Source of the DNA: an uncultured Chloroflexia bacterium
GTDB lineage: Bacteria > Chloroflexota > Limnocylindria > Limnocylindrales > CSP1-4
Direction of reading: 5' to 3'
Assembly: GCA_963706095.1 (NCBI GenBank)
Contig: OY970149.1
Location: 832,173 to 896,172, forward strand
DNA: 64,000 bases
Positions 5,556-39,296 of the stretch are shown here, in pieces. Each line of letters opens with the position of its first letter. Within the stretch, counting starts at the first letter, position 1. Both the position numbers and the translations under genes were made by a program. The notes under the pieces were generated by a model. It saw only the letters and a program-made list of their open reading frames with translations, searched no databases and was not told where the DNA came from.

Positions 5556-5624
5556 TTCATCCCCCTCAGTACAGGCCGACCCTTATAGCACGTCAGTCAG
5601 CGCGCGGCGCCACACTGTGACGCG

Positions 5625-27252: not shown

Positions 27253-27900
27253 CTAGGGCGAGCGGCGCTGCTCCGGCTCAGGCACGCTCTCATCCTGTCG
27301 TGCAATTTCATTCCGATTGGAACGGGCGGCACCGCGGTCGAGCACGAGGGCGGTGATGGCGAACCAGGCAAGGCCGAGCAGCAGGCCGCCGATCGCGTCA
27401 GTTGGCCAGTGGACACCGAGCGAGACGCGCGCGAAGCCCATCACCAGGCCCGCGATCAGGCCGCCCATGAGCGCGAGGCGCAGACGCCGGCCAGGCGGCG
27501 CGAGAAGCCATGCCAGGACCGCGATCAGGGCGACGGCGCGGACGACATGGCCGCTCGGGAACGCGAACGAGTCGGGCCCGAAGAAGTGCTCGCTGGCGAC
27601 GGTCTCGGGGCGCGCCCGTTCGACGATCAGCTTCACGCCGAAGGCAGCCAGGTCGGCGGCGAGGGTCAACGCCACGGCGACTCCGAGGACCGCGCCACGC
27701 ACCCGGCCCATGGCCAGTGCAATCAGCCCGACGAGCACCGCCCATACGGCAAGGTCTCCGAGCGTGTTGATGAGCCCGACGAATTCGCGTGCCGGGCCTG
27801 GCGCCAGCTCGGCCGCGGTCACCAGCGCGACCTCCCAGGCCGCAGCGGGCTCGAGCCGCGCCCAGACAGCGAACAGACCGAGTGCCAACAGTGACAGCAC
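27253..27900 (-). CDS. PAP2-family membrane phosphatase
   Basis: C-terminal part of ORF 27253-28446. KLIVERARP, PSGH, SLGVHWPTD motifs and several TMs. The start is uncertain (GTG around 27900). Confidence 0.7.
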   Translation of the reverse strand: MLSLLALGLFAVWARLEPAAAWEVALVTAAELAPGPAREFVGLINTLGDLAVWAVLVGLIALAMGRVRGAVLGVAVALTLAADLAAFGVKLIVERARPETVASEHFFGPDSFAFPSGHVVRAVALIAVLAWLLAPPGRRLRLALMGGLIAGLVMGFARVSLGVHWPTDAIGGLLLGLAWFAITALVLDRGAARSNRNEIARQDESVPEPEQRRSP

Positions 27901-27941
27901 GGCAATGACCGCCAGCGCCCGCTCGGACGCCGGCGTCTGGC

Positions 27942-28883
27942 TCAGACGCCGATCGGGTGCCAGACCGTCTTGATCTCGAGGTACGTCGCGATCCATTCGG
28001 GCCGCTGCGCGCGGCGGTCGTCGAGCCAGTCGAAGCGCTCGTCGGCGTCGCGTGGCGGGCGGGCGACGCGCTTGACGCTGTCGATGGCGGACTCCTCGAC
28101 CTGTGCGCGCATGTCGCGCGGCACGCCCCAGGTGTCGATGGCGTTGACGTCCATGTGCGCCGCCAGGATCGGGTACGAGCTCGCGTCGCAGGCCGGTCAG
28201 GATGTTGATCACGCCGGCCGGAACGTCCGACGTGGCCAGCACCTCGCTCAGGGTCACCGCCGGCAGCGGCCGCGTCTCCGACGCGAGCACGACCACGGCA
28301 TTGCCGCCAACCACGGCCGGTGCCACGCGCGAGACGAGTCCCAGGAGCGAGGAAGTCTCCGGCGCGACGATGCCAACCACGCCGGTCGGCTCGGGGATGC
28401 TGAAGTTGAAGTACGGCGCGCCGACCGGGTTCACGGTGCCCAGCACCTGGGTGATCTTGTCAGCCCAGCCGGCGTACCAGACCCAGCGGTCTATCGCCCG
28501 ATCGACGACGGTGCGATGCGGCCTCTGTCGGATAGCCCCTCGGCCGCGGCGACCTCGTCCACGAATTGCGCGCGGCGTCCTTCCATCAGCTCGGCGACCC
28601 GGTACAGCACCTGGCCGCGGTTCATGGCGGTCTTGCCCGCCCAGCCGGCAGCCGCGCCACGCGCCGTGCGCACCGCGTCGCGCAGGTCCTTGCGCGACGA
28701 GCGGACGGCATTGGCGAGCGGCGCGCCGTCCGGCGCGCGGACGACGTAGCTGCGTCCCGATTCCGAGCGCGGGAACTGGCCACCGACGTACAGCTTGTAC
28801 GTCTTGCGCACGGGTATGCGCGCCGCCGTCGCGGGCTGCGCGGGCTTGACCGGCTGCAGCGCGCGCGACTTATTCGTTGCCAT
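27942..28883 (-). pseudogene. Aldehyde-dehydrogenase-like protein lacking the catalytic domain (about 314 aa); two frame changes near 28515 and 28170
   Basis: MATNKS...KTYKLYVGGQFPRSESGRSY, AIDRWVWYAGWADK, VVGIVAPE, VINILTG, then ...AIDSVKRV goes directly to an ALDH-like C-terminal tail EWIATYLEIKTVWHPIGV. I saw no ELGGK or catalytic Cys segment in any frame. Confidence 0.55.
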
Positions 28884-29208
28884 GCTGCCTGGTTTCCGGG
28901 CGCTCGAGCAGCAACGTGTACGCCGGTCCGTCGGCAGCCACGGGACGGTGCTCAGTGCCAGCGCGGACCACGTACAGGTCGCCGGCCGAGAGCGCGACCG
29001 GCTCGCCGCCCTCGAGCTCGATCTCGAAAGAGCCGCTCCAGCACAGGAAGAGCTCGTCCTCGTCGTGGTGATGCCACGGAAATTCGCCGTCGAGGCGCGC
29101 CAGCCGAACGATCGCGTCGTTCGCGAGCACCAGGTCCTGCGGCTGCCATGGCTCGGTCAGTGCCGCTGCGGCATCGGTGATGGAGATGGCGTGCTCGAGC
29201 TGAGGCAT
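28870..29208 (-). CDS. Cupin domain protein
   Basis: Internal Met MPQLEH... [26 protein letters not shown]...[15 protein letters not shown] (two-motif cupin signature). Confidence 0.7.
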
Positions 29209-29224
29209 CAGCTGTCGTCGTCCA

Positions 29225-30796
29225 TCAGTGGCCGTCGCCCGTGTCGAGGTACGCCAGCAGGCCGGGCACGCCGCCCTCGCGGCCGAAGCCCGACTCCTTG
29301 TAGCCACCGAAGGGCGAGGTGGGGTCGAAGCGGTTGAACGTGTTGGCCCACACGACGCCGGCACGCAGCTTGCTGACCATGTGCAGGATGCGGCTGCCCT
29401 TCTCGGTCCAGACGCCCGCGGACAGGCCGTAGGCGGTGTTGTTGGCCTTCTCGATCGCCTCGGCCGGCGTGCGGAAGGTCAGCACCGACAGGACCGGCCC
29501 GAAGATCTCCTCCTGGGCGATGCGGCTCGACTGGCTGACGTTGGTGAACAGCGTCGGTCGGAAGAACCAGCCGCGCGCCGGCAGGTCGCAGGCTGGCTGG
29601 TACATCTCGGCGCCCTCGGCCTGGCCGGCCTCGACCAGCTCCTCGATCTTGGCCAGCTGGGCGGCGTTGTTGATCGCGCCGACGTCGGTGTTCTTGTCGA
29701 GCGGGTCGCCAACGCGTAGCGTCGACAGACGGTCCTTGAGGCGCTCGACGAAGGGCTCGACGATCGATTCCTGGACGAACAGCCGGCTGCCAGCGCAGCA
29801 CACCTCGCCCTGGTTGAAGAAGATGCCGTTGACCACGCCCTCGATGGCCTGGTCGATCGGCGCGTCGTCGAAGATGATGTTGGCCGCCTTGCCGCCCAGC
29901 TCGAGCGTCAGCGCCTTGTCGCTGCCGGCGACGGCACGGCCGATCTGCTTGCCCACCGCGGTCGAGCCGGTGAAGGCGACCTTGTCCACGTCTGGATGCT
30001 TTACCAGCGCCAGGCCGATCTCGCCGGGGCCGGTGATGATGTTGACGACGCCCGGCGGCAGGTCGGCCTGGCGGCACACGTCGGCAAAGAAGAGCGCGCT
30101 CAGGGGCGTCGAGCTGGCCGGCTTGAGCACCACCGTGTTGCCCGCGGCCAGTGCCGGCGCGATCTTCCAGGCGAGCATCAGCAGCGGGAAGTTCCAGGGG
30201 ATGACCTGCGCGGCGACGCCGAGCGGTTGCGGGTCGCGGTTCGGGAACGCGTACTCGAGCTTGTCCGCCCAGCCCGCGTAGTACCAGAAGTGGGCCGCGG
30301 CGAGCGGCACGTCGACGTCGCGCGACTCCTTGATGGGCTTGCCGCCGTCGAGCGACTCGAGGACAGCGAACTCGCGGCTGCGCTCCTGCAGGATGCGCGC
30401 GATGCGGAACAGGTACTTGGCACGCTCGCTGCCGGGAAGCTTCGCCCCACTCGCGACGGAACGCCCGGCGCGCGGCGCCGACGGCCTGGTCGACGTCCTC
30501 GACAGTGGCGCGCGCGATCTCGGCGAGTGGCTCCTCGGTTGCCGGATCGACGGTCGTGAACCACTGGCCGCCGCGCGGCGCCGACTTCCTTGCCATCGAT
30601 GAACAGTCCGTAGCGTGACTTGAGCTGGACGATGTCGCGCGCTTCGGGCGCCGGACGCGTACTCCCACGGAACCTGCTGGCCGTCGCCGAGCGCCCAGCT
30701 GTTGGGCGAGGGCGTGCCCCGCCCGACATCTGCCGATCGCGCCCGTGGCGTCAGGGCGCGCTCCTCGGATACCTCGACTGACTTGCGTCGTGCCAT
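29225..30796 (-). pseudogene. NAD(P)-dependent aldehyde dehydrogenase; three +1 shifts in the N-terminal about 130 codons
   Basis: The body is intact: VIPWNFPLLM, FTGSTAVGK, LELGGKAANIIF, EVCCAGSR, EEIFGPV. N-terminal pieces WEYA / PEARDIVQLKSRYGLFIDG / GGQWFTTVDPATEEPLAEIARATVEDVDQAV lie in three successive frames (ORFs ending 30796, 30729, 30668). Confidence 0.8.
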
Positions 30797-30833
30797 CGCG
30801 GACAGGCTACACCCGTGACGCGACCATTGCTAC

Positions 30834-30849
30834 GTGACCGTTTGGTCAC
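30834..30849. promoter_or_regulatory. Palindrome GTGACCgtttGGTCAC (candidate operator, copy 1)
   Basis: Seen directly in the 38-nt divergent gap between the ALDH start (30796) and the methyltransferase ORF. Same 6-4-6 palindrome plus AT as at 33384 and 38015. Confidence 0.5.
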
Positions 30850-31634
30850 ATAATCGAATGGCATCCGGTGGCGGCACCGTGCGCTGCGCTACGCTTGCGG
30901 GCATGCGCCGCCTGGCCGCTGCCACCGAGCTCCTTGACGGACCACTCGATGCACGTCTGCTCGCCGGCAACCTGCGCGATCTTGCGCGCGTGAACGCGTG
31001 GCTCGGCGGGAACGCGCTGTCCTGGCGAGCCGTAGAACCGCTCCTGGATGAAGGTGACGAGGGAGTGCTGCGGCTTTTGGATGTTGGCACCGGCGGCGCC
31101 GACCTGCCGCGCGACCTGATCCGTCGCGCCACGGCTCATGGTGGGCGGTTGGAAATCGTGGCGACGGACGTGCGGCCCGAGATCGTCCATCTCGCCCTCA
31201 AGACGCGCCCGCTGCCCGACGAGCTGACGATCGAGCTCGCACGGTCAGGCACCATTGATGCCGAGGACGGCGCCTTCGACGTCGCGCATGCGTCGCTGGT
31301 CCTGCACCACCTCGAGCCGGACGCTGCGCGGGCGCTGCTGCGCGAGATGGCTCGAGTGGCGCGCAGCGCGGTGATCGTCAACGACCTCGCGCGCGGCCGG
31401 CTGTGGCTGCTCGGCGCTCGGGCGCTGAGCCTTGTGGCAACACGCAACCTCTACACGCGCAACGACGCGCCCCTGTCCGTGCGCCGCGCCTACTCGATCG
31501 GCCAGCTGACACAGCTGGCCGCCCATGCCGGGCTGCGCCCCGTGGCACGCTACCGGGCCGTGCCGCCTTACCGCTTCGCGCTGGTGTTCAAGCACGATGG
31601 CCCAACACGTGGTCGTGTCAGCCACGACAGCTGA
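30834..31634 (+). CDS. Class I SAM-dependent methyltransferase
   Basis: Motif I LRLLDVGTGGADL, FDVAHASLVLHHLEP, AVIVNDL. The true start may be ATG around 30858 (MASGGG). Confidence 0.7.
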   Translation: MTVWSHNRMASGGGTVRCATLAGMRRLAAATELLDGPLDARLLAGNLRDLARVNAWLGGNALSWRAVEPLLDEGDEGVLRLLDVGTGGADLPRDLIRRATAHGGRLEIVATDVRPEIVHLALKTRPLPDELTIELARSGTIDAEDGAFDVAHASLVLHHLEPDAARALLREMARVARSAVIVNDLARGRLWLLGARALSLVATRNLYTRNDAPLSVRRAYSIGQLTQLAAHAGLRPVARYRAVPPYRFALVFKHDGPTRGRVSHDS

Positions 31635-32832
31635 CGTCGCAATCGTCGGCGGTGGACCCGCCGGCTCTGCGCTTGCCATCCGACTCGCACGCAGCGGCAT
31701 CGCAACGACGCTCATCGAGCGCCGTTCAGCGCCGACGTGGCACGCGTGTGGGGTCTTCTCGTCGCCCTTGACGCGCGGTCACCTCGCCGAACTGGGCATG
31801 TCCGCGACCGAGATTGCGGCGCTCAACCGGCCGATCGCCGCGCTCGACCTGGAAACGACCCGCGGAGTGCGGTGCCGAATCGAATATGAGTCGGGGCCGG
31901 CCTGCGGCTTCGACCGCCTCGCGCTCGAAACGACCCTGCTCGAACGCGCCCGCGCGGCGGGCGCGACGGTCATGACCGGAACAGTGGTTCGCAACGTCGA
32001 GCTATCAACCCACGAAGGCGAGCGCTCACGCCTGCAGCTCTCGTCCGTGGCCGCACACGACGCCGGGGCGTCAGAGCAGCCGAGCACGGTGACCGCCAGG
32101 CTGGTCGTCGGGGCCGATGGTTCGTCATCCGTCGTGGCGCGCGCTGCGGGTGTGTACCGCGTCCATCGGCTGCTGGACCGTTCCGGAATCACCTTTCATC
32201 GCGTCGACTCGGGCGCTCCAGACGACCACGTCCCGATGGCCGGTCGCTTCGTGTTCGACGACGGCTGGTATGTCGGCATCGCGCCCGTTCCGGCCGGCCG
32301 GGTCAACATCGGCATCGTTGTGCGCGCGGTCCGTGATCAACGGCCCGCCGAAACGGCGGAGCACGTGATCAGCTCGATCCCAGGACCAGCCGGTGGCTGG
32401 ATGACCGCGCCGACGCTCGATCGAGTGGCCGTCGCCGGCCGGCTCGAGCATCACGCCGCGCGGGTGGCCGGCCGTACGTGGCTGCTGGTGGGCGACTCAA
32501 TCGGCTTTATCGATCCCCTGACCGGCGAAGGGTTGCTGCGCGCATTCCAGAGCGCGCGGCTCGCAGCGCACTCGATCGAGCAGATGCTGCGCGGCAGCCC
32601 TGCGGCGTTGGAGGATTACGATCGCCACGTCCGCCGCAAGTTTCACGGCAAGAACATGGTCTCCTGGATGATGCAGATGTTCCTCGCCCAGCCCTTGGTC
32701 CTCGACTACGCAATCCGCAGGTTGGCGCGACGTGACGCCCTGCGCTCCGATCTGACCCTGGTGCTGACCGACCAGCAGCCTCCCAGCCGCGTGGTCAACC
32801 CAGCCTTCATTGCGCGATTGCTCGCGCCATGA
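31597..32832 (+). CDS. FAD-dependent oxidoreductase (geranylgeranyl-reductase / aromatic-hydroxylase-like)
   Basis: DVAIVGGGPAGSALAIRLARSG dinucleotide fold, GDSIGFIDPLTGEG motif. The start overlaps the methyltransferase end. Confidence 0.7.
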   Translation: MAQHVVVSATTADVAIVGGGPAGSALAIRLARSGIATTLIERRSAPTWHACGVFSSPLTRGHLAELGMSATEIAALNRPIAALDLETTRGVRCRIEYESGPACGFDRLALETTLLERARAAGATVMTGTVVRNVELSTHEGERSRLQLSSVAAHDAGASEQPSTVTARLVVGADGSSSVVARAAGVYRVHRLLDRSGITFHRVDSGAPDDHVPMAGRFVFDDGWYVGIAPVPAGRVNIGIVVRAVRDQRPAETAEHVISSIPGPAGGWMTAPTLDRVAVAGRLEHHAARVAGRTWLLVGDSIGFIDPLTGEGLLRAFQSARLAAHSIEQMLRGSPAALEDYDRHVRRKFHGKNMVSWMMQMFLAQPLVLDYAIRRLARRDALRSDLTLVLTDQQPPSRVVNPAFIARLLAP

Positions 32833-33278
32833 CTAAGGCCGAATCCCCCGCTGGGCGGGTAACGCGTGTCGCTGCCTATGCGCTCGTCGAGGACGAGACC
32901 AGGCGCGTTCTGCTGGTCCGCATCGCCGCGGGCTACCCGAGCGCGGGCCAGTGGACGCTGCCCGGCGGCGGGCTCGATTTCGGCGAAGATCCCGCCGTCG
33001 GCGCGCTGCGTGAGCTGACCGAGGAAACCGGGCTCGTCGGAGAGATCACGAGACTGGCCTTCGTCGACTCGTTCTCGCGCCCGGGCCTGCCCGAGGAGGG
33101 CGTCGCGGCGTGGCACGCGATACGAATCGTGTATCTCGTCGAGCTGACGGGCGGGTCGCTGCGCGACGAGACCGAGGAGTCGACGGATCGCGCCGACTGG
33201 TTCAGTCCCGCAGAAACAGGCAGCATTGATCTCGTGCCGCTGGCGGTCAAGGCAATCGCCCATCTCCAGGCCGAGTGA
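32829..33278 (+). CDS. Nudix hydrolase
   Basis: Nudix box GGGLDFGEDPAVGALRELTEETGL. ATGA overlap with the upstream stop. Confidence 0.8.
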   Translation: MTKAESPAGRVTRVAAYALVEDETRRVLLVRIAAGYPSAGQWTLPGGGLDFGEDPAVGALRELTEETGLVGEITRLAFVDSFSRPGLPEEGVAAWHAIRIVYLVELTGGSLRDETEESTDRADWFSPAETGSIDLVPLAVKAIAHLQAE

Positions 33279-33767
33279 GTGCACAGCACGATGGGCATAG
33301 ACATCTCTGCCCCACCGCGGGTCGTGTTCGGCCTTGCCCGCGACGTCCGCAACTGGCCGCGTATGCTGCCGCACTATCGATCAGTGACCGTTCGGTCACA
33401 TGACGGCCATGAATTGACCGCCGACATGCGCGCGGTTCGACAGTTCGGTCCCTTGCCGGTCACCGTTTCCTGGCGCAGCCGCACGTGGAGTGAGGACGCC
33501 GAAGAGCACGACCTTCGCCTGCGCTTCGTGCACGTGCGCGGCGCGACGCGCGGGATGGATGTGACCTGGCATATCACGCCGAGCGTCGACGGCTGCCGCG
33601 CGACCATCGAGCACGACTTCGAGCGCCCCCTGCCGCTCGTCGGGACGAGCCTCATCCCGCGCTTGATCGACCGCTTCTTCGTGCGCGCTATCGCCGGCCG
33701 AACGCTGGCGACCTTCAAGGAGCTCGCCGAATCGACAGAGGTCCCGGGGGCGCAGGCAAAACCATGA
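33279..33767 (+). CDS. SRPBCC (polyketide cyclase/dehydrase-like) family protein
   Basis: About 160 aa. IDISAPPRVVFGLARDVRNWPRMLPHY... is the typical START/Bet v1-like cyclase-dehydrase pattern. Confidence 0.6.
   Translation: MHSTMGIDISAPPRVVFGLARDVRNWPRMLPHYRSVTVRSHDGHELTADMRAVRQFGPLPVTVSWRSRTWSEDAEEHDLRLRFVHVRGATRGMDVTWHITPSVDGCRATIEHDFERPLPLVGTSLIPRLIDRFFVRAIAGRTLATFKELAESTEVPGAQAKP
33384..33399. promoter_or_regulatory. Palindrome GTGACCgttcGGTCAC (copy 2, intragenic)
   Basis: Seen directly inside the SRPBCC gene. It is followed by ATGAC exactly as in the copy at 38015. Confidence 0.4.
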
Positions 33768-35029
33768 GCGAAGGTCAACGCGACGTCTGGATCACCGGGC
33801 TTGGCCTGGTCACGCCGGTCGGAATCGGGCTTGACGCCTTCTGGCAGGGGCTGCAGAACGGCAAGTCGCCGGTCAGGACCATCGACCGCTTCGACCCGAC
33901 GCAATTTCGCTCGCAGGTCGCCGCACAGATAGACGACTTCGTCGCGACCGATCACATGGACTCCCGGACGGCACGCCAGACGGACCGGTTCAGCCAACTG
34001 GCGCTGGCCTGCGGAAAGCTCGCCCTGGCCGACGCGGGCCTGAACGTGGGCCAGCGCGGCTCCGCGCGGGCCGACCGGTTCGGCGTCTACATCGGCTCGG
34101 CGCTCGGCGGAATCGCCTACGCCGAGGAACAGCACGAGCGTTACCTCGGGCGCGGCATCAGATCGGTCGCGCCCAACCTGGCCCTGGCGGTCTTCGGCGG
34201 CGCCGCGCCGGCCAACATTGGAATTGCGCTGGGCCTCCACGGACCCGTCCTCTCGACCGCCAACTCGTGCGCGGCCGGCGCCGTGGCCATAGGCGAAGCG
34301 TTCCGCCTCATCCGCTCCGGCGCGGCCGACGCCGCGATCGCCGGCGGTGTCGAGGCGCCGCTCAGCCCACTCGCCTTCGGCGCGTTCGACATAATCCGAG
34401 CCTTGAGCGCCACCCACAACGACCGCCCGTCAGAGGCGTCACGTCCGTTCGATTCTGAGCGCGACGGCTTCGTGATGGGCGAGGGCGCCGGGCTGCTCGT
34501 GCTCGAAGCGGCTGAGGTTGCCCAGCGCCGTGGCGCTCGCGCGTACGCGGAGCTGCGCGGCTACGCGGCCACGAGTGACGCTCATCACATGGTCCAGCCT
34601 CGTCCCGACGGCCGCCAGGCGGCGCGCGCGGCACGTCTCGCCCTGGCAGATGGCCGAATGAAGGCGGCCGATGTCGACTACGTCAACGCCCACGCGTCGG
34701 CGACCCCGCTCGGCGACGCGATCGAGGCGCGCGCGATCGCGCGCGCTCTCGGACCACGTGCCCGCGAGGTCCCTGTGAGCGGCACGAAGGCGTACTACGG
34801 CCATCCACTGGGCGCGTCCGGCGCGATCGAGGCAGCCATTGCCGCACTCGCCATAAGCCGCGGCTGGGCGCCGGGCACGGTCAACCTCGAACGTGTCGAT
34901 GAGGCCGCCGCTGCCGCCTTGCCGGGGATCTCCCGAGAGCCGTTTGTTGGCGCGATCGGCGGCGTGCTCTCGACCTCGTTCGGCTTCGGTGGCCTGAATG
35001 CGGCGCTCGCACTGAGCGCCGTCAGGTGA
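33764..35029 (+). CDS. Beta-ketoacyl synthase, KAS I/II (FabF-like) type
   Basis: DVWITGLGLVTPVG, active-site STANSCAAG, SDAHH and NAHASAT His motifs, GFGGLNA C-terminus. ATGA overlap with SRPBCC. Confidence 0.8.
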   Translation: MSEGQRDVWITGLGLVTPVGIGLDAFWQGLQNGKSPVRTIDRFDPTQFRSQVAAQIDDFVATDHMDSRTARQTDRFSQLALACGKLALADAGLNVGQRGSARADRFGVYIGSALGGIAYAEEQHERYLGRGIRSVAPNLALAVFGGAAPANIGIALGLHGPVLSTANSCAAGAVAIGEAFRLIRSGAADAAIAGGVEAPLSPLAFGAFDIIRALSATHNDRPSEASRPFDSERDGFVMGEGAGLLVLEAAEVAQRRGARAYAELRGYAATSDAHHMVQPRPDGRQAARAARLALADGRMKAADVDYVNAHASATPLGDAIEARAIARALGPRAREVPVSGTKAYYGHPLGASGAIEAAIAALAISRGWAPGTVNLERVDEAAAAALPGISREPFVGAIGGVLSTSFGFGGLNAALALSAVR

Positions 35030-35574
35030 CGCCGACTCGCGACGGGCTGCCCTTCGACGGCCAGGTGGTGCGCCTGCGTGACGTGACCCTCGATGACGCG
35101 GATCTGGTCGACCGCTGGAACGCCGAGCTCGAGCCGGGCAGCTTCAACGACTTCGGGCAACGCGGCCCGATCGCGCGCGAGCCCCTGGTAGCGGGCAAGC
35201 CGCTGCGCAACGAGCACAACGGCTCGCTCATGATCGAACGCATCGCGGACGGAACGCCGGTCGGCACGATCGCCTACCGCAAGGTGATGTTCGGGCCGCC
35301 GCCAGATTCGGACGCGTGGCAGATCGGCATCGACCTGCCACCAGAGGCGCGCGGCCGGGGCTACGGTGGCGAGGCGCAGCGGCTGCTGGCAGACTGGCTC
35401 TTCGCCACGACTCCGGTCAATCGCGTTGAGGCCGCGACCGACATCGACAACGTGCCCGAGCAGCGCGCGCTCGAAAAGGCCGGCTACGTGCGCGAAGGAG
35501 TGCTGCGCGGATCGCAGTTCCGGGCCGGCGCCTACCACGACCTCGTCTACTACTCGAGGTTGCGCAGTGACTGA
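35026..35574 (+). CDS. GNAT family N-acetyltransferase (RimJ/RimL-like)
   Basis: VRLRDVTLDDADLV..W, RGRGYGGEA, NVPEQRALEKAGYVREG. GTGA overlap with the KS stop. Confidence 0.75.
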   Translation: MTPTRDGLPFDGQVVRLRDVTLDDADLVDRWNAELEPGSFNDFGQRGPIAREPLVAGKPLRNEHNGSLMIERIADGTPVGTIAYRKVMFGPPPDSDAWQIGIDLPPEARGRGYGGEAQRLLADWLFATTPVNRVEAATDIDNVPEQRALEKAGYVREGVLRGSQFRAGAYHDLVYYSRLRSD

Positions 35575-35605
35575 GGCCATCCGCAAACACCGACGGGTGG
35601 GGCGG

Positions 35606-36073
35606 ATGAGTGCGATCGGACTGAGCGTTTTGGTGGGGGTCTTCGTGCTGGCGTGTGGCGCGGCTCCGACCGAATCCCAGGCCCCGGTGCCCTTGGCGTC
35701 GGCGACGTCGCCTGAGGACCAGCTGCAGCAGCGAGCGGACGCCGCGGCAGGCGTCCTCACGGCGCGCGACTGGCTCGCGTACGCCCAGCTCGCAAGCTCG
35801 AGCCTTCTCGAGGGATGCCCTGCCGATCGTCTCGCGACGCTTGTTGCGATGGAGCGGCTGTCGCTTCGCTCCCTGCTGGACATCGGCGATGAGGTGGCTT
35901 TGACCGTTCGCGTTGAGGACGTCGAGACCACAGATGTCGATGGCACCGTGACACTGGTCCTGGTAGCCGACGGCGAGTCCCTGGACGGCACGGCGAGCAC
36001 GGATCGCTGGATCACGGATGGCGGCGAATGGCGCCTTGACGACGACAGCTGGCGGGAGGCCTGTTCAGCTTGA
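35606..36073 (+). CDS. Lipoprotein, unknown function
   Basis: MSAIGLSVLVGVFVLAC lipobox (alternative GTG 35567), about 130-aa mature domain. Confidence 0.5.
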   Translation: MSAIGLSVLVGVFVLACGAAPTESQAPVPLASATSPEDQLQQRADAAAGVLTARDWLAYAQLASSSLLEGCPADRLATLVAMERLSLRSLLDIGDEVALTVRVEDVETTDVDGTVTLVLVADGESLDGTASTDRWITDGGEWRLDDDSWREACSA

Positions 36074-36942
36074 GCGCCAGGCGTCGCTCGCCCTTCCTTG
36101 AGGCCACGCTGATCGGATTGCTGCTGGCCGTCGGGCTGCCGTCCGCCGCAATAGCGCAGGGCTCGCTCGAGAACGGCGAGTTCATGCGCCAGGTTGTCAA
36201 CGCGCAAGTTCGCGAGACGAGCGACGATCCGATCGCAGACTACGACGCCAAGATCGCTGCGGTGGAGGGTCTGAGTCCGCACAACGAACAGCAATATCGT
36301 CTTCAGCAGCTGACCTTGATGTCGCTCAACTGGTACCGCGCGAACGAGATCTGCGTGGCCCTCTACAAGTCAGCCGAGAGCATCGCCGACGTCGCGCGCT
36401 GGCTGGCGTGCGTGACGCCCGTGAATGCGGGCATCCTCGTGCTGGCCGGTGAGATTCGCGACCAGCAGATCGAGATGGTGGCGAGCGCTCAGCCGGGTGA
36501 CGCTGGATACGCGCCGCCACAGGGCCGCTTCCAGAGCGGCCTGGACATTGCCAACGGCGATGACTACGCAAAGGTGGTCGAAACGATCCAAACGGTCGAC
36601 GAAGGGTTGGAGTCGGTGACGGATGTCCGCGAGGGGCTGCAGGCGCTTGCAGACGGCGGAGGTCCGCGGCAGCTCGTGGCGAACATGCTCGCCGCCGATG
36701 GCAGCGAGGTTCAGATTGCCGTCGGCGAGGTCGAGCTCGGTGTCAGCGAAGCGGGATTCAGTCTCCAGGCAGACGGCCAGGCCATCGCCGACGGGTTGGT
36801 TGGGCTGGCCGAGTCGTCCGGGCAGCCGCTCGATCAGGTCGAGCTGGAGATCACGATCACGCAGCCAGTCGGTGACGGTGCCGTCGAACTCAGTGCCAGC
36901 GAGATGCTGCAGATCCCCTTGGGGCCGGGATCGCCCGAATAG
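36070..36942 (+). CDS. Secreted hypothetical protein
   Basis: Signal peptide ...LLLAVGLPSAAIAQG. Acidic, helical-looking body. The start overlaps the upstream stop. Confidence 0.45.
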   Translation: MSARRRSPFLEATLIGLLLAVGLPSAAIAQGSLENGEFMRQVVNAQVRETSDDPIADYDAKIAAVEGLSPHNEQQYRLQQLTLMSLNWYRANEICVALYKSAESIADVARWLACVTPVNAGILVLAGEIRDQQIEMVASAQPGDAGYAPPQGRFQSGLDIANGDDYAKVVETIQTVDEGLESVTDVREGLQALADGGGPRQLVANMLAADGSEVQIAVGEVELGVSEAGFSLQADGQAIADGLVGLAESSGQPLDQVELEITITQPVGDGAVELSASEMLQIPLGPGSPE

Positions 36943-36948
36943 GGATGG

Positions 36949-37935
36949 CTAGTCGAGCGTGAAGTAGTCGGGCCCCTGGTAAGCGCCCGTGCGCTCCTTG
37001 CGGATTTGCATGAGCACGTCATTGAGCAGGCTGCTCGCGCCGAATCGGAACAGGTCAGGCGTCATCCAGCGCGGTCCGAGCGTCTCGTACAGGATCGTCA
37101 GGTACTGGATCGCTTCCTTGGCGGTGCGGATGCCGCCCGCCGGCTTCATTCCGACCACGCGCCCGGTTCGGGAGTGGAAATCGCGGATCGCCTCGAGCAT
37201 GACCAGGGTGACGGGCATGGTCGCCGCCGGGGTCACCTTGCCGGTTGAGGTCTTTATGAAGTCGGCGCCGGCGGCCATCGCCAGGATCGATGCGCGGCGC
37301 ACGTTGTCATACGTCTCGAGCTCTCCCGTCTCGAGGATGACCTTCAGGTGCGCGGGCCCGCACGCTTCCTTGACGGCCACGATCTCGTCGAAGACGTGGC
37401 GGTACTCGCCCTGCAGGAACGCACCGCGGTCGATGACCATGTCGATCTCGTCGGCACCCGCGGCAACGGCATCGCGCGTCTCGACGAGCTTCACATCCGT
37501 GAAGGTCTGGCCCGAGGGAAATCCGGTCGACACGCTTGCGACCTTGACCCCTGAGCCCGCGAGAGCACGCTTGGCGACGGGAATCATGGCGGGATAGATG
37601 CAGATCGCAGCAACGCTCGGGATGGTCGGATCGACCGGATCGGGGCGCATGCCCTTGGCGCACAGGGCGCGCACCTTGCCCTCTGTGTCCTTGCCTTCGA
37701 GAGTGGTCAAATCCATCATCCGGATCGCCAGATCGAGCGCCCAGAGCTTCGATTCCTTCTTGATCGAGCGCCGCTTCAGGCTCTCGACCCGCTCCTCGAT
37801 GCCCACCTGATCAACGCCGCCGACACGCTCGACGATGTCCTGAATGCCGTCCGCGCGGCCAACCCAGGCACGGACCAGGGCGCTCGCCTCGAGCTCCGCA
37901 GGTCGGGTGTCCTGGGCGTCTAGAACACGACTCAT
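36949..37935 (-). CDS. deoC: Deoxyribose-phosphate aldolase (long form)
   Basis: MDLTTLEG, ICIYP, DEIDMVI, Schiff-base motif ADFIKTSTGK, GMKPAGGIR. Confidence 0.8.
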   Translation of the reverse strand: MSRVLDAQDTRPAELEASALVRAWVGRADGIQDIVERVGGVDQVGIEERVESLKRRSIKKESKLWALDLAIRMMDLTTLEGKDTEGKVRALCAKGMRPDPVDPTIPSVAAICIYPAMIPVAKRALAGSGVKVASVSTGFPSGQTFTDVKLVETRDAVAAGADEIDMVIDRGAFLQGEYRHVFDEIVAVKEACGPAHLKVILETGELETYDNVRRASILAMAAGADFIKTSTGKVTPAATMPVTLVMLEAIRDFHSRTGRVVGMKPAGGIRTAKEAIQYLTILYETLGPRWMTPDLFRFGASSLLNDVLMQIRKERTGAYQGPDYFTLD

Positions 37936-38014
37936 CAGGTACTGATCTTAACCCGCCAGCCACCCGCTGCCCAGTGTCGCAATCAGTTTGCACTTGACAT
38001 CGCTGGCTCTTGAG

Positions 38015-38030
38015 GTGACCTTGTGGTCAC
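38015..38030. promoter_or_regulatory. Palindrome GTGACCttgtGGTCAC abutting the ArsR-family start codon (copy 3, likely autoregulatory operator)
   Basis: Seen directly. It ends 1 nt before ATG 38031. A TTGACA hexamer lies about 16 nt upstream. Confidence 0.55.
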
Positions 38031-38312
38031 ATGACCCGACAAGACGCAGCCAACTCGCTCGATTCTTTGCTCGGCGCGCTGGCCGAGCCGACTCGAAGGC
38101 GGCTCTTCGAGCGCATCGTCCGCGAGCCCGGGCTGGCGACCTCACAGCTCACCGCCACGACCACCGACATAACACGGTGGGCAGTGATGAAGCACCTGGC
38201 GGTGCTGCGCCAGGCGGGCCTGGTGCAGACGATGGCCACGGGCCGGCTGCGCCGCCACTACGCGGAACGCGCCGCGCTGGAGCCCCTTCGGACGTGGCTC
38301 TCCGAGCGCTGA
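38031..38312 (+). CDS. ArsR/SmtB-family winged-helix transcriptional regulator (no Cys, no obvious metal site)
   Basis: LGALAEPTRRRLFERI....LATSQL......ITRWAVMKHLAVLRQAGLV, the canonical ArsR HTH. The 93-aa sequence contains no cysteine. Confidence 0.75.
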   Translation: MTRQDAANSLDSLLGALAEPTRRRLFERIVREPGLATSQLTATTTDITRWAVMKHLAVLRQAGLVQTMATGRLRRHYAERAALEPLRTWLSER

Positions 38313-38315
38313 CCC

Positions 38316-39296
38316 TCAGCGCGGCGTGGTCAGCTCTGCCAGCGCGCTGAGCCAGTCGTCGCCGAAGCTGGCGCGGGCGAGGATCGCACCGTCGCGCAGG
38401 CTCGCATCGGACACCTCGGCTTCGGGCAGGTTGAGCTTCTCGAGGATCGCGCGCACGATGGCCACGCCGGCGGCGAGCTGGCGGGCGCGCCGCGGCCGCA
38501 CCTCAAACAGACTCACGACCTCGTCGGCGGGCACGCGCGCGAGCGTGGCCAGGTCCTCCTCGAGGTGCTGCCTGTCGAGGCGCCCAAGGCGTGCGATGTT
38601 CGTTGCCGTGCCGCCCACGAAGACGGCGCTGCCGATCGAGCCCGGTGCAATGTCGGGCCACTGAGCAGCCTCGACGACCGCCCGCGCGGTGGCGACCAGA
38701 TCGTCGATCTCGGCCCACGTCGGCGGATCGTTGTGCACGCGCGAGTTCGTCAGGCGCGCCGAGCCGATGGCGAGCGGGACGACCTCGAGGGCACGGCCGG
38801 GCACATGGAGCGAAAGCTCGGTCGAGCCGCCGCCGATGTCGGCGACGGCAAACGCCTGGTCGAGCGAGGACCCCGCAGTTACGCCGAGGAAGGTCAGCTC
38901 GGCTTCCTGCTGCACCGTCAGGACGTGCATCGGCATGCCCAGGTAACGCGACACGGCGGTGACCAGCTCGTCACCGTTCGCGGCGCGGCGCAGCGGCTCG
39001 GTGCCGATTACGACGATGTCCGTTGCGCCCGCATTGCGCGCCGCCTGGCGCATCACGAGCAGCGAGTCGACCACCTGCTGCAGCTGCTCATCGGGGATGT
39101 GACCCTTGGCGTGGACGACGTCGCCCAGGCCGATCAGGTCGCTGCGGTCGTCGAGCGGCGTGAGCGTGCCCAGCATCCCGGACGAGGAGCCCGAGCCTGA
39201 GCCACTGGGCGTCTTGACTCGCGCCACGAGCAGGTGCGCGCTGTTGCTGCCGACGTCGACCGCGGCGCGTATCGATTTGCTCGGTCGAGTTGTCAC
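38316..39296 (-). CDS. ppx: Ppx/GppA-family exopolyphosphatase
   Basis: AAVDVGSNSAHLLVA, DIGGGSTEL, the ASKHA-fold motifs of Ppx/GppA. Confidence 0.75.
   Translation of the reverse strand: MTTRPSKSIRAAVDVGSNSAHLLVARVKTPSGSGSGSSSGMLGTLTPLDDRSDLIGLGDVVHAKGHIPDEQLQQVVDSLLVMRQAARNAGATDIVVIGTEPLRRAANGDELVTAVSRYLGMPMHVLTVQQEAELTFLGVTAGSSLDQAFAVADIGGGSTELSLHVPGRALEVVPLAIGSARLTNSRVHNDPPTWAEIDDLVATARAVVEAAQWPDIAPGSIGSAVFVGGTATNIARLGRLDRQHLEEDLATLARVPADEVVSLFEVRPRRARQLAAGVAIVRAILEKLNLPEAEVSDASLRDGAILARASFGDDWLSALAELTTPR

Follow-up and report, generated by a model that had tools for sequence, protein, structure and literature searches.

Introduction

Rv2034 of Mycobacterium tuberculosis is an ArsR-like regulator of the Rv2034-Rv2035-Rv2036 operon, whose second gene encodes an SRPBCC protein (PMC3338718). 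It acts as an autorepressor with additional targets, and its footprint, which extends from -30 to +3, contains the 8-N4-8 palindrome CCGTAAGT-N4-ACTTACGG (PMC3338718). A C61A variant revealed that Cys61 is needed for the disulfide-linked dimer in vitro (PMC3338718). Rv2034 is the closest characterised analogue of the regulator described here, a 93-aa ArsR-type protein encoded on a 64,000-nt stretch (hereafter, the window) of contig OY970149.1 from an uncultured Chloroflexia bacterium of the Limnocylindrales type. A literature search, which was not exhaustive, for ArsR operators with GTGACC/GGTCAC half-sites or for the function of ArsR-AHSA1 or ArsR-SRPBCC pairs returned nothing relevant beyond Rv2034.

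In the window, a palindrome of the form GTGACC-N4-GGTCAC is found directly upstream of the regulator gene, between a pair of divergent aldehyde dehydrogenase (ALDH) and methyltransferase (MT) genes, and inside an SRPBCC gene. Judged from sequence comparison, the three copies are quite probably real, evolutionarily conserved operators of the adjacent ArsR-type regulator.

Three conserved copies of one palindrome

The three sites, all of them unstranded and exact matches, are:

30834-30849 (extended form 30832-30851): site 1, predicted operator GTGACCGTTTGGTCAC, between the divergent ALDH and MT promoters
33384-33399: site 2, predicted intragenic operator GTGACCGTTCGGTCAC, at SRPBCC codons 36-41
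38015-38030 (extended 20-bp form 38013-38032, A-n-...-n-T): site 3, predicted operator GTGACCTTGTGGTCAC

The preliminary description of this DNA had reported three copies of GTGACC-N4-GGTCAC, no other complete one, and a recurrence very unlikely to arise by chance. An exact search of the window confirmed this count, as GTGACCNNNNGGTCAC has exactly three exact matches (30834-30849, 33384-33399 and 38015-38030) and a fourth complete 6+6 copy was not found in the window. The chance level was set by 100 dinucleotide-preserving shuffles of the window, which contained 0.02 copies on average, and none of the 100 reached three. With two mismatches allowed, the extra matches in the window are scattered and at chance level. 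The relaxed core GTGAC-N6-GTCAC adds one window copy, at 38959 within the Ppx gene, for which no conservation was seen elsewhere in the loci of relatives. A chance origin of the three copies is rejected by the shuffles together with the orthologous conservation.

The dinucleotide AT follows directly 3' of all three copies, as had been noted before, and sites 2 and 3 have the 3' flank ATGAC in common. An extension of the palindrome to this flank was considered and rejected: among 72 sites only an A at position -2 and a T at position +2 are conserved, so that the AT of the earlier account corresponds to the conserved T at +2, while the other letters of ATGAC belong to the start codon in the case of site 3 and to the coding sequence in the case of site 2. 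The consensus derived from the 72 sites is A-n-GTGAC(C/T)-N4-(G/A)GTCAC-n-T, a 20-bp palindrome with 8-N4-8 geometry.

Relatives of the locus were obtained from a scan of one genome per species, which yielded 43 loci (L001-L043; 44 with the window), all of them in metagenome-assembled genomes of Chloroflexota, many labelled Candidatus Limnocylindrales. The closest homologues of the regulator are at most 76% identical to it and come mostly from metagenomes. The conserved gene order comprises ALDH on the minus strand, a plus-strand series of MT, flavin adenine dinucleotide (FAD)-dependent oxidoreductase, NUDIX, SRPBCC, ketosynthase (KS) and GNAT genes and, further on, DeoC (minus), ArsR (plus) and Ppx (minus). 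Loci L007-L009, L015 and L019 are without the MT, FAD, SRPBCC and KS genes, and L035 is without the whole plus-strand operon. In 692 kb around the orthologous loci there are 86 exact matches to GTGAC-N6-GTCAC, compared with about 0.7 estimated from base composition, and 82 of the 86 occupy orthologous places: 38 are in the ArsR promoter (37 carry a near-ArsR label and one, L030 9892, a near-DeoC label), 25 in the ALDH gap, 15 at the same SRPBCC codons and four at the NUDIX stop codon of loci without an SRPBCC gene. One further match is a second copy in the DeoC/ArsR gap (L027 3603) and three are apparently unrelated.

The regulator and its own promoter

The features around site 3 are:

36949-37935, minus strand: DeoC-type aldolase (profile matches)
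37994-37999, plus strand: TTGACA, -35 element of the ArsR promoter, 15 nt 5' of the palindrome, as read from the sequence
38017-38022, plus strand: GACCTT, inferred -10 element of the ArsR promoter, inside the operator
38031-38312, plus strand: HTH_20/ArsR-family regulator, 93 aa, cysteine-free (PF12840)
38316-39296, minus strand: Ppx/GppA phosphatase, convergent with the regulator gene (profile match)

The last base of site 3, 38030, directly precedes the ATG at 38031 with which the 93-aa open reading frame (ORF) begins. An operator abutting the regulator's own start had been taken as an autoregulatory layout, and this arrangement is general: a GTGAC-N6-GTCAC palindrome with at most one mismatch is located 5' of the ArsR start codon in 44/44 loci, and the palindrome is also found beside ArsR-family genes in metagenomes. 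Its distance to the ArsR start is 0-7 nt, or 15-17 nt in three loci, and TTGACn precedes it by 15-16 nt in 35 of the 44 loci. Position 8 of the palindrome is T in 39/44 loci, which fits an nAnnnT -10 element within the left half-site and a leaderless transcript, with a probable start at or near ATG 38031. The operator would thus lie over the -10 element and the transcript start, downstream of a consensus TTGACA -35 element, and the protein is therefore expected to repress its own synthesis. Autoregulation by the ArsR-type protein is strongly supported.

The DeoC gene was considered as a direct target. It is divergent from the regulator gene in every locus that covers this region, but its distance to the operator is variable (about 41-80 nt by manual reading) and it is therefore probably no direct target.

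The 93-aa protein matches PF12840 (HTH_20) with 36.3 bits at a cut-off of 27, and it scores 44.7 against the metalloregulator subfamily NF033788, which is under the cut-off of 55. An AlphaFold2 (AF2) model built on a 29-sequence alignment has a predicted local distance difference test (pLDDT) score of 90.2 and a canonical alpha1-alpha5 winged helix, with helices at residues 3-18, 20-31, 37-43, 49-61 and 80-92 and strands at 65-70 and 73-78 (alpha1-alpha2-alpha3-alphaR-beta1-beta2-alpha5 fold). Foldseek searches gave template modelling (TM) scores of about 0.8 for 3F6O, 7P6F, 2OQG and 6J05; the best structural matches are Rhodococcus ArsR-family proteins without characterisation (3F6O, 2OQG, 3F6V), SrnR and ArsR. 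The protein contains no cysteine, and neither an alpha3/alpha3N Cys motif nor an alpha5 Asp/His/Glu site was found in it. Its only histidines are H55 in the recognition helix and H76 in the wing, and the C-terminal helix RAALEPLRTWLSER is without a His or Asp cluster. Because cysteines and an alpha5 His/Asp cluster are absent and the score falls under the metalloregulator cut-off, sequence and model together indicate an ArsR-fold regulator that is not a canonical metal sensor, and the earlier reading of a cysteine-free ArsR-type protein without a canonical metal or arsenite site is borne out. The recognition helix reads TRWAVMKHL, which in the Limnocylindrales clade takes the form (T/S)RW(G/A)V(I/M)KH(L/M).

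The wider ArsR-AHSA1 family and the probable reader of the palindrome

Metagenome contigs were scanned with the pattern ANGTGACCNNNNGGTCACNT alone, which returned at least 120 loci. Among the matches listed, to which all counts in this paragraph refer, the start of an ArsR-family gene lies within 120 nt of the match in 77 of 120. This proximity is seen on 77 of the 100 contigs with a GC content of at least 0.55 compared with none of the 20 low-GC contigs, and on 55 of the 68 high-GC contigs with 350 nt or more of sequence to either side. In 67/69 loci with enough contig room, an AHSA1 domain is either part of the same protein or encoded immediately downstream, and the recognition helix is TRFGVMKHL in 57/69 members. 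The promoters are stereotyped, with a perfect TTGACA in 69/77 and TANNNT in 70/77, in the order TTGACA, 1 nt, palindrome, 1 nt, TANNNT, followed by the start codon about 6-7 nt further on. The operator thus fills the 18-nt spacer and therefore occupies a classic repressing position. The 23 high-GC matches without an ArsR gene were considered as secondary targets and rejected, as they look like background or terminators.

The ArsR proteins of these metagenome loci are 36-51% identical to the regulator of the window. The family comprises about 8000 protein clusters at E <= 1e-20, few of them annotated (Gaiellales, Streptosporangiaceae), and its members come in two sizes, about 105 aa and, where an AHSA1/SRPBCC domain is fused, about 255 aa. 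The window regulator is without their C-terminal helix extension and without the AHSA1 partner. It thus appears, from sequence, to be a truncated relative of this huge ArsR-AHSA1 family that uses the same operator.

The association of motif and recognition helix in two clades with unrelated neighbourhoods is, at the level of sequence, the strongest argument for the ArsR protein as the reader of the palindrome. A motif alone does not name its reader, and the palindrome might instead be recognised by a transcription factor encoded elsewhere, for which the ArsR gene would be merely one target. This is very improbable, given that the ArsR-family gene is the only constant companion of the motif in two clades of 36-51% identity with entirely different neighbourhoods and that the recognition helix co-varies with the presence of the motif. 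The same operator was also sought at distant ArsR homologues and rejected there: L044 and L045, which carry SRQAV and SRPAV helices, have no such palindrome. L044 exhibits another palindrome at about 5565-5582, the 5-N6-5 sequence TGCAACCATGTAGTTGCG (GCAAC-N6-GTTGC), located 5' of an AHSA1/SRPBCC-ArsR gene pair with the helix SRQAVAKHL. A different palindrome with a different helix fits an operator specificity that tracks the recognition helix.

The palindrome could also act as an RNA hairpin, with a role in termination, processing or stability, or be a mobile repeat, and not serve as protein-binding DNA. A 6-bp stem with a 4-nt loop can indeed form in RNA at sites 1 and 2, and in two unrelated organisms without a link to ArsR (L053 12374 and L077 7437) the palindrome is accompanied by an A-run and a T-run, resembling an intrinsic terminator. 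As these two cases show, ordinary hairpins with the bare 16-mer exist too. At the orthologous loci, however, the stem bases are invariant and do not co-vary, positions 6 and 11 often cannot pair, the putative transcript begins downstream of site 3, and the positions are fixed without flanking repeat structure. No T-run follows the sites, a terminator scan of 30700-38400 found none, and an Rfam search gave no match. An RNA element was rejected on the Rfam and terminator-scan results and the missing stem covariation, and hairpin or repeat is the least credible of the explanations considered.

Site 1 and the ALDH promoter

The features around site 1 are:

29225-30796, minus strand: aldehyde dehydrogenase (PF00171, E = 8e-150), by synteny the conserved partner of site 1
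30804-30809, minus strand: TAGCCT, inferred -10 element of a leaderless ALDH promoter, 7 nt 5' of ATG 30796
30827-30854, plus strand: sigma-70-like promoter TTGCTA-16-CATAAT toward MT with site 1 filling the spacer (promoter scan; function inferred)
30834, 30858 or 30903 to 31634, plus strand: S-adenosylmethionine-dependent methyltransferase (Pfam, NCBIfam), first gene of the MT-FAD-NUDIX-SRPBCC-KS-GNAT operon

The start of the MT gene determines the size of the divergent gap. The alignment with MT homologues begins no earlier than the residue encoded at ATG 30903, which is residue 16 if the gene is read from 30858, and TACGCT, a -10 element, is located at 30890-30895, 7 nt 5' of this ATG, in a leaderless arrangement as in the orthologues. 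Therefore the gene probably starts at ATG 30903 and not at GTG 30834 inside the palindrome, which gives an ALDH/MT gap of about 106 nt with a wholly intergenic palindrome. The copy placed by the preliminary description in a 38-nt gap is thus where it was said to be, while the gap itself is probably wider.

The palindrome is conserved in the gap between ALDH and the next plus-strand gene in 27/27 readable loci (L043 is masked), which upholds the earlier observation for the divergent 30.8-kb region. TANNNT is found 6-10 nt (6-8 nt in nearly all) 5' of the ALDH start in 24/25 analysed loci, namely those in which the routine picked a start upstream of the palindrome. From the palindrome to the ALDH start codon the distance is 45-47 nt in 18/25 loci, 35-39 nt in 4/25 (38 in the window) and 50-53 nt in 3/25. 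Relative to ALDH, site 1 therefore spans about -38 to -53 in the window, abutting the -35 element, and about -46 to -61 in most relatives. The plus-strand gene, MT or NUDIX, is likewise leaderless with its own TANNNT, and this -10 element is 6-395 nt from the end of the palindrome. Site 1 is kept in loci without MT-FAD-SRPBCC-KS (L007-L009, L015, L019 and L035). Because the distance to ALDH is near-constant, that to the plus-strand gene is variable and the site persists without the KS genes, the conserved partner of site 1 appears to be the ALDH promoter and not the ketosynthase operon. Comparison of the loci thus points to a conserved core regulon of regulator plus ALDH, with the ketosynthase operon as a lineage-dependent addition. 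The proposed link between the regulator and the ketosynthase operon is only partly borne out and is secondary to the link with ALDH. Control of the 30.8-kb promoter region is in line with the conserved site, though it is tied to ALDH rather than to the KS operon, and repression there is tentative.

In the window, TTGCTA-16-CATAAT is the sole promoter-like match in 30700-38400. With site 1 in its spacer, it has the layout of the TTGACA-1-palindrome-1-TANNNT promoters of the wider family, and this spacer arrangement was seen in the window only. The position of site 1 bears on the sign of regulation. The same protein and sites might serve an activator or dual regulator of ALDH and/or the MT operon at site 1, with the regulator's own gene still repressed. 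An operator centred near -53 relative to the ALDH start, upstream of the -35 element, in 18/25 loci would suit activation, as would the poor -35 elements of the plus-strand gene promoters (at most 4/6 matches), and Rv2034, an autorepressor, also regulates phoP and dosR positively (PMC3338718). Yet the -35 element of ALDH is often a good (A/G)TGACA (an unquantified manual reading), site 1 of the window abuts this element and fills the spacer of the rightward promoter, the operator of the wider ArsR-AHSA1 family is always in a repressing position, and the spacing classes 35-39, 45-47 and 50-53 are out of strict helical phase. Activation at site 1 is thus the less likely outcome, although it is the most serious of the alternatives, and repression of the MT operon, with modulation of ALDH in one direction or the other, is preferred.

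Single GTGAC/GTCAC half-sites are found within the ALDH core promoter or directly beside it (window 30815-30819; -35 regions of L005, L015, L019, L030 and L031), and the ALDH -35 element, often (G/A)TGACA, itself resembles an operator half-site. Rv2034 has been reported to bind single half-sites. By analogy, the isolated half-sites could add to the regulation of ALDH. In L038, the ALDH-MT intergenic region is unusually long (about 450 nt) and contains three ATGACA-N4-TGTCAT palindromes (3001, 3209 and 3273), two of them identical (ATGACACGACTGTCAT), which may be sites of another regulator or an inserted repeat.

Site 2 within the SRPBCC gene

The genes concerned are:

33279-33767, plus strand: SRPBCC protein of polyketide cyclase/dehydrase type, 162 aa, carrying site 2 (profile match)
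33764-35029, plus strand: FabF-like ketosynthase (profile matches), Cys-His-His residues apparent in the sequence
35026-35574, plus strand: GNAT acetyltransferase (profile match)

Site 2 is in frame, encodes V-T-V-R-S-H and is located 380 nt 5' of the ketosynthase start, as the preliminary description had placed it. A palindrome with at most one mismatch is present at the same codons in 19/24 SRPBCC orthologues. Within it, the Ser codon is TCA in 19/20 cases, compared with 6.6% of the 3747 Ser codons in the analysed genes of the loci, and the Val codon is GTG in 22/23 cases, compared with a usage of 37.5%; these codon counts are phylogenetically non-independent. With an identity of only 46-63% among the SRPBCC proteins, synonymous positions would be expected to be largely randomised, and the rare TCA codon in 19/20 cases indicates selection on the DNA itself. 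The residue at codon 39 varies (R, L, E, Q, H), mostly with its third-position G retained, and in the distant SRPBCC orthologues without the palindrome Gly, Ala or Arg replaces Ser. In L007-L009 and L015, which lost the SRPBCC gene, a palindrome is located where the NUDIX gene ends, overlapping its stop codon (GTGA) as well as the beginning of a small unrelated ORF.

Site 2 might alternatively be a by-product of protein-coding constraint or shared ancestry with no functional DNA site at all. Orthologues that have no palindrome conserve V-T-(V/I) as well, flanking promoter elements are missing, and the sequences are related by phylogeny. Such a by-product would, however, leave the bias toward TCA and GTG unaccounted for, as well as the third-position G that is mostly kept while the residue at codon 39 changes, the G, A or R in place of Ser where the palindrome is absent, and the retention of the palindrome at the NUDIX stop codon after loss of the SRPBCC gene. 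This explanation is consequently improbable. An internal promoter at site 2 was also considered and rejected, as sequence inspection revealed no -35 or -10 element in the family layout. The earlier suggestion of an internal or roadblock site ahead of the KS-GNAT genes gains from the conservation at the nucleotide level, which goes against codon preference and makes a functional site plausible.

The loci L007-L009 and L015 (e.g., L009 5788-7744) have a distinct gene content, with NUDIX, an ORF of about 108 aa of no known family that begins at the GTG of the palindrome, and a 380-aa double-GNAT fusion. A remnant of KS or SRPBCC in the small ORF after NUDIX (L007-L009) was rejected, as blastp shows no similarity.

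Neighbouring genes

Two further genes of the plus-strand operon are:

31525-32832, plus strand: FAD-dependent oxidoreductase of geranylgeranyl-reductase type (profile matches)
32829-33278, plus strand: NUDIX hydrolase (profile match)

As called, the FAD-oxidoreductase ORF overlaps the end of MT by about 110 nt (31525-31634), and a similar overlap is seen in relatives; the two genes may truly overlap, or the FAD-oxidoreductase gene begins further downstream than called. The ketosynthases (33764-35029 and orthologues) are 69-82% identical, far above their operon neighbours (mostly about 40-68%), and the cluster genes that were examined did not include one for an acyl carrier protein. Two minus-strand ORFs in 27253-28883, located downstream of both ALDH and a cupin gene (28870-29364), each contain part of a second aldehyde dehydrogenase: the ORF at 28491-28883 has an N-terminal part, and that at 27253-28446 a part joined to a PAP2 phosphatase domain. 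They may represent a frameshifted or rearranged gene, and many relatives have an ALDH match of 30% identity at the same place.

The ALDH, MT, DeoC and ArsR genes all appear to be leaderless (30796, 30903, 37935 and 38031 in the window; also L001-L043), with a TANNNT hexamer 6-9 nt 5' of the start codon and no visible Shine-Dalgarno spacing. Leaderless expression may thus be common in this Chloroflexota lineage.

A model of regulation

What is observed here comprises the sites with their conservation, where they stand relative to start codons and promoter elements, and the association of regulator and operator. DNA binding, transcription starts, the sign of regulation and the signal enter the following model as deductions. 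The 93-aa protein presumably binds the 20-bp 8-N4-8 operator as a dimer through the helix TRWAVMKHL. At site 3, the operator would cover the -10 element and the leaderless transcript start, leading to repression of the regulator gene. At site 1, a second operator would separate the two divergent leaderless promoters, with a fixed spacing to that of ALDH. Since it stands between the promoters and fills the spacer of the rightward one, the regulator would most likely repress the operon from MT to KS-GNAT and modulate ALDH. Site 2 would probably serve as a roadblock or auxiliary operator ahead of the KS-GNAT genes. Since the protein is devoid of metal and thiol sensing sites, it would be expected to leave the DNA in response to a non-metal signal, and as ArsR and AHSA1 are fused in relatives, this signal might be relayed by an SRPBCC protein.

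Several observations weigh against this model or parts of it. The specificity of the motif was assessed on only about 690 kb around orthologous loci, and GACCTT makes a weak -10 element for the ArsR promoter. Site 1 is, in most relatives, upstream of both -35 regions (about -46 to -61 for ALDH), a position that would be atypical for simple steric repression and compatible with activation. Near site 2 no recognisable promoter was seen, and the site is absent from the more distant orthologues L017, L028, L037, L038, L042 and L043. Finally, the idea of an SRPBCC relay draws only on the domain fusion in relatives.

A broader proposal is that the operator is the shared DNA code of a very large group of two-part sensors, in which an SRPBCC/AHSA1 ligand binder, fused or separate, controls DNA binding by a sensor-less ArsR domain and whose two parts have been split in Limnocylindrales. 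This is an unlikely generalisation. That an SRPBCC protein supplies ligand binding is speculation in the case of the window, where the polyketide-cyclase-type gene with site 2 is the only one for an SRPBCC protein. If true, the SRPBCC gene, which belongs to the regulated KS operon and carries an operator, would close a feedback loop, and this loop would couple a lipid or polyketide-like product and aldehyde metabolism to the regulator.

The predicted unit of regulator, 20-bp operator, ALDH and MT-...-KS operon provides a concrete regulon for a class of uncultured Chloroflexota with essentially no transcription factor that has an assigned site. At the same time, an operator is assigned to the very abundant ArsR-AHSA1 family of soil bacteria, whose perfect TTGACA-palindrome-TANNNT cassette might be of use as a small repressible promoter. 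The coding-embedded operator would be a clean example of dual selection on DNA.

Comparison with known systems

The biology is of a familiar kind, that of an autoregulated winged-helix repressor. With the canonical ArsR/SmtB metalloregulators (SmtB, CzrA, CadC, ArsR, CmtR) the window protein shares the winged-helix alpha1-alpha5 fold (TM 0.7-0.8) and presumably the general class, that of dimeric repressors on imperfect inverted repeats over their own promoters; an inverted-repeat operator overlaps the promoter of the window regulator as well. It differs from them by the absence of the alpha3N Cys motif and of the alpha5 His/Asp/Glu site. Canonical ArsR/SmtB operators are 12-2-12 repeats of the TGAA-N-TTCA type, unrelated to the operator of the window. 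NolR, HlyU, BigR, SqrR and SrnR have the ArsR fold and a regulation that is not metal-dependent, as predicted for the window protein, and some non-metal members act positively (HlyU) or via a partner protein (SrnR/SrnQ). BigR, SqrR and HlyU, however, sense via cysteines, which the window protein does not possess, and their operators and regulated genes are unrelated. For site 2 alone, lac O2 offers an analogy, as a high-affinity operator within coding sequence downstream of the primary one and under dual coding and binding constraint. lac O2 is 401 bp from its primary site, whereas the distance here is 2.5 kb, and there is no sign of ArsR tetramerisation or DNA looping.

Rv2034, too, is small, has the ArsR fold and does not belong to the classical metal sensors. 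Its 20-bp operator geometry, with 8-nt inverted repeats and a 4-nt spacer, is that of the window (A-n-GTGACy-N4-rGTCAC-n-T), and both systems combine, as a prediction in the case of the window, autorepression with other targets and a functional association with an SRPBCC protein. The half-site is different, CCGTAAGT in Rv2034 and (A-n-)GTGACC in the window, and the recognition helix of Rv2034 is of the SRPAVSQHL type. Rv2034 forms a Cys61-dependent dimer, whereas the window protein is cysteine-free. The SRPBCC gene of the mycobacterial system is directly downstream of the regulator gene. In the window, the gene directly 3' of the regulator is instead the convergent Ppx/GppA gene, and the SRPBCC gene is 4.6 kb away in another operon, with the operator inside its coding sequence. 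An AHSA1 gene was not found in the window beyond a weak match inside this SRPBCC gene (33279-33767).

A further likeness is with the ArsR-AHSA1 family of Actinomycetota-type soil bacteria, which has the same core operator GTGACC-N4-GGTCAC, a near-identical recognition helix (TRFGVMKHL compared with TRWAVMKHL) and a leaderless promoter of consensus sigma-70 type. There, the operator fills the promoter spacer, whereas at the promoter of the window regulator it sits 15-16 nt downstream of TTGACA over the -10/+1 region, and only site 1 resembles the spacer-filling arrangement. AHSA1 is fused or adjacent in the family and has no counterpart at the window regulator. The window, in turn, has two extra operators, one at ALDH and one inside the SRPBCC gene.

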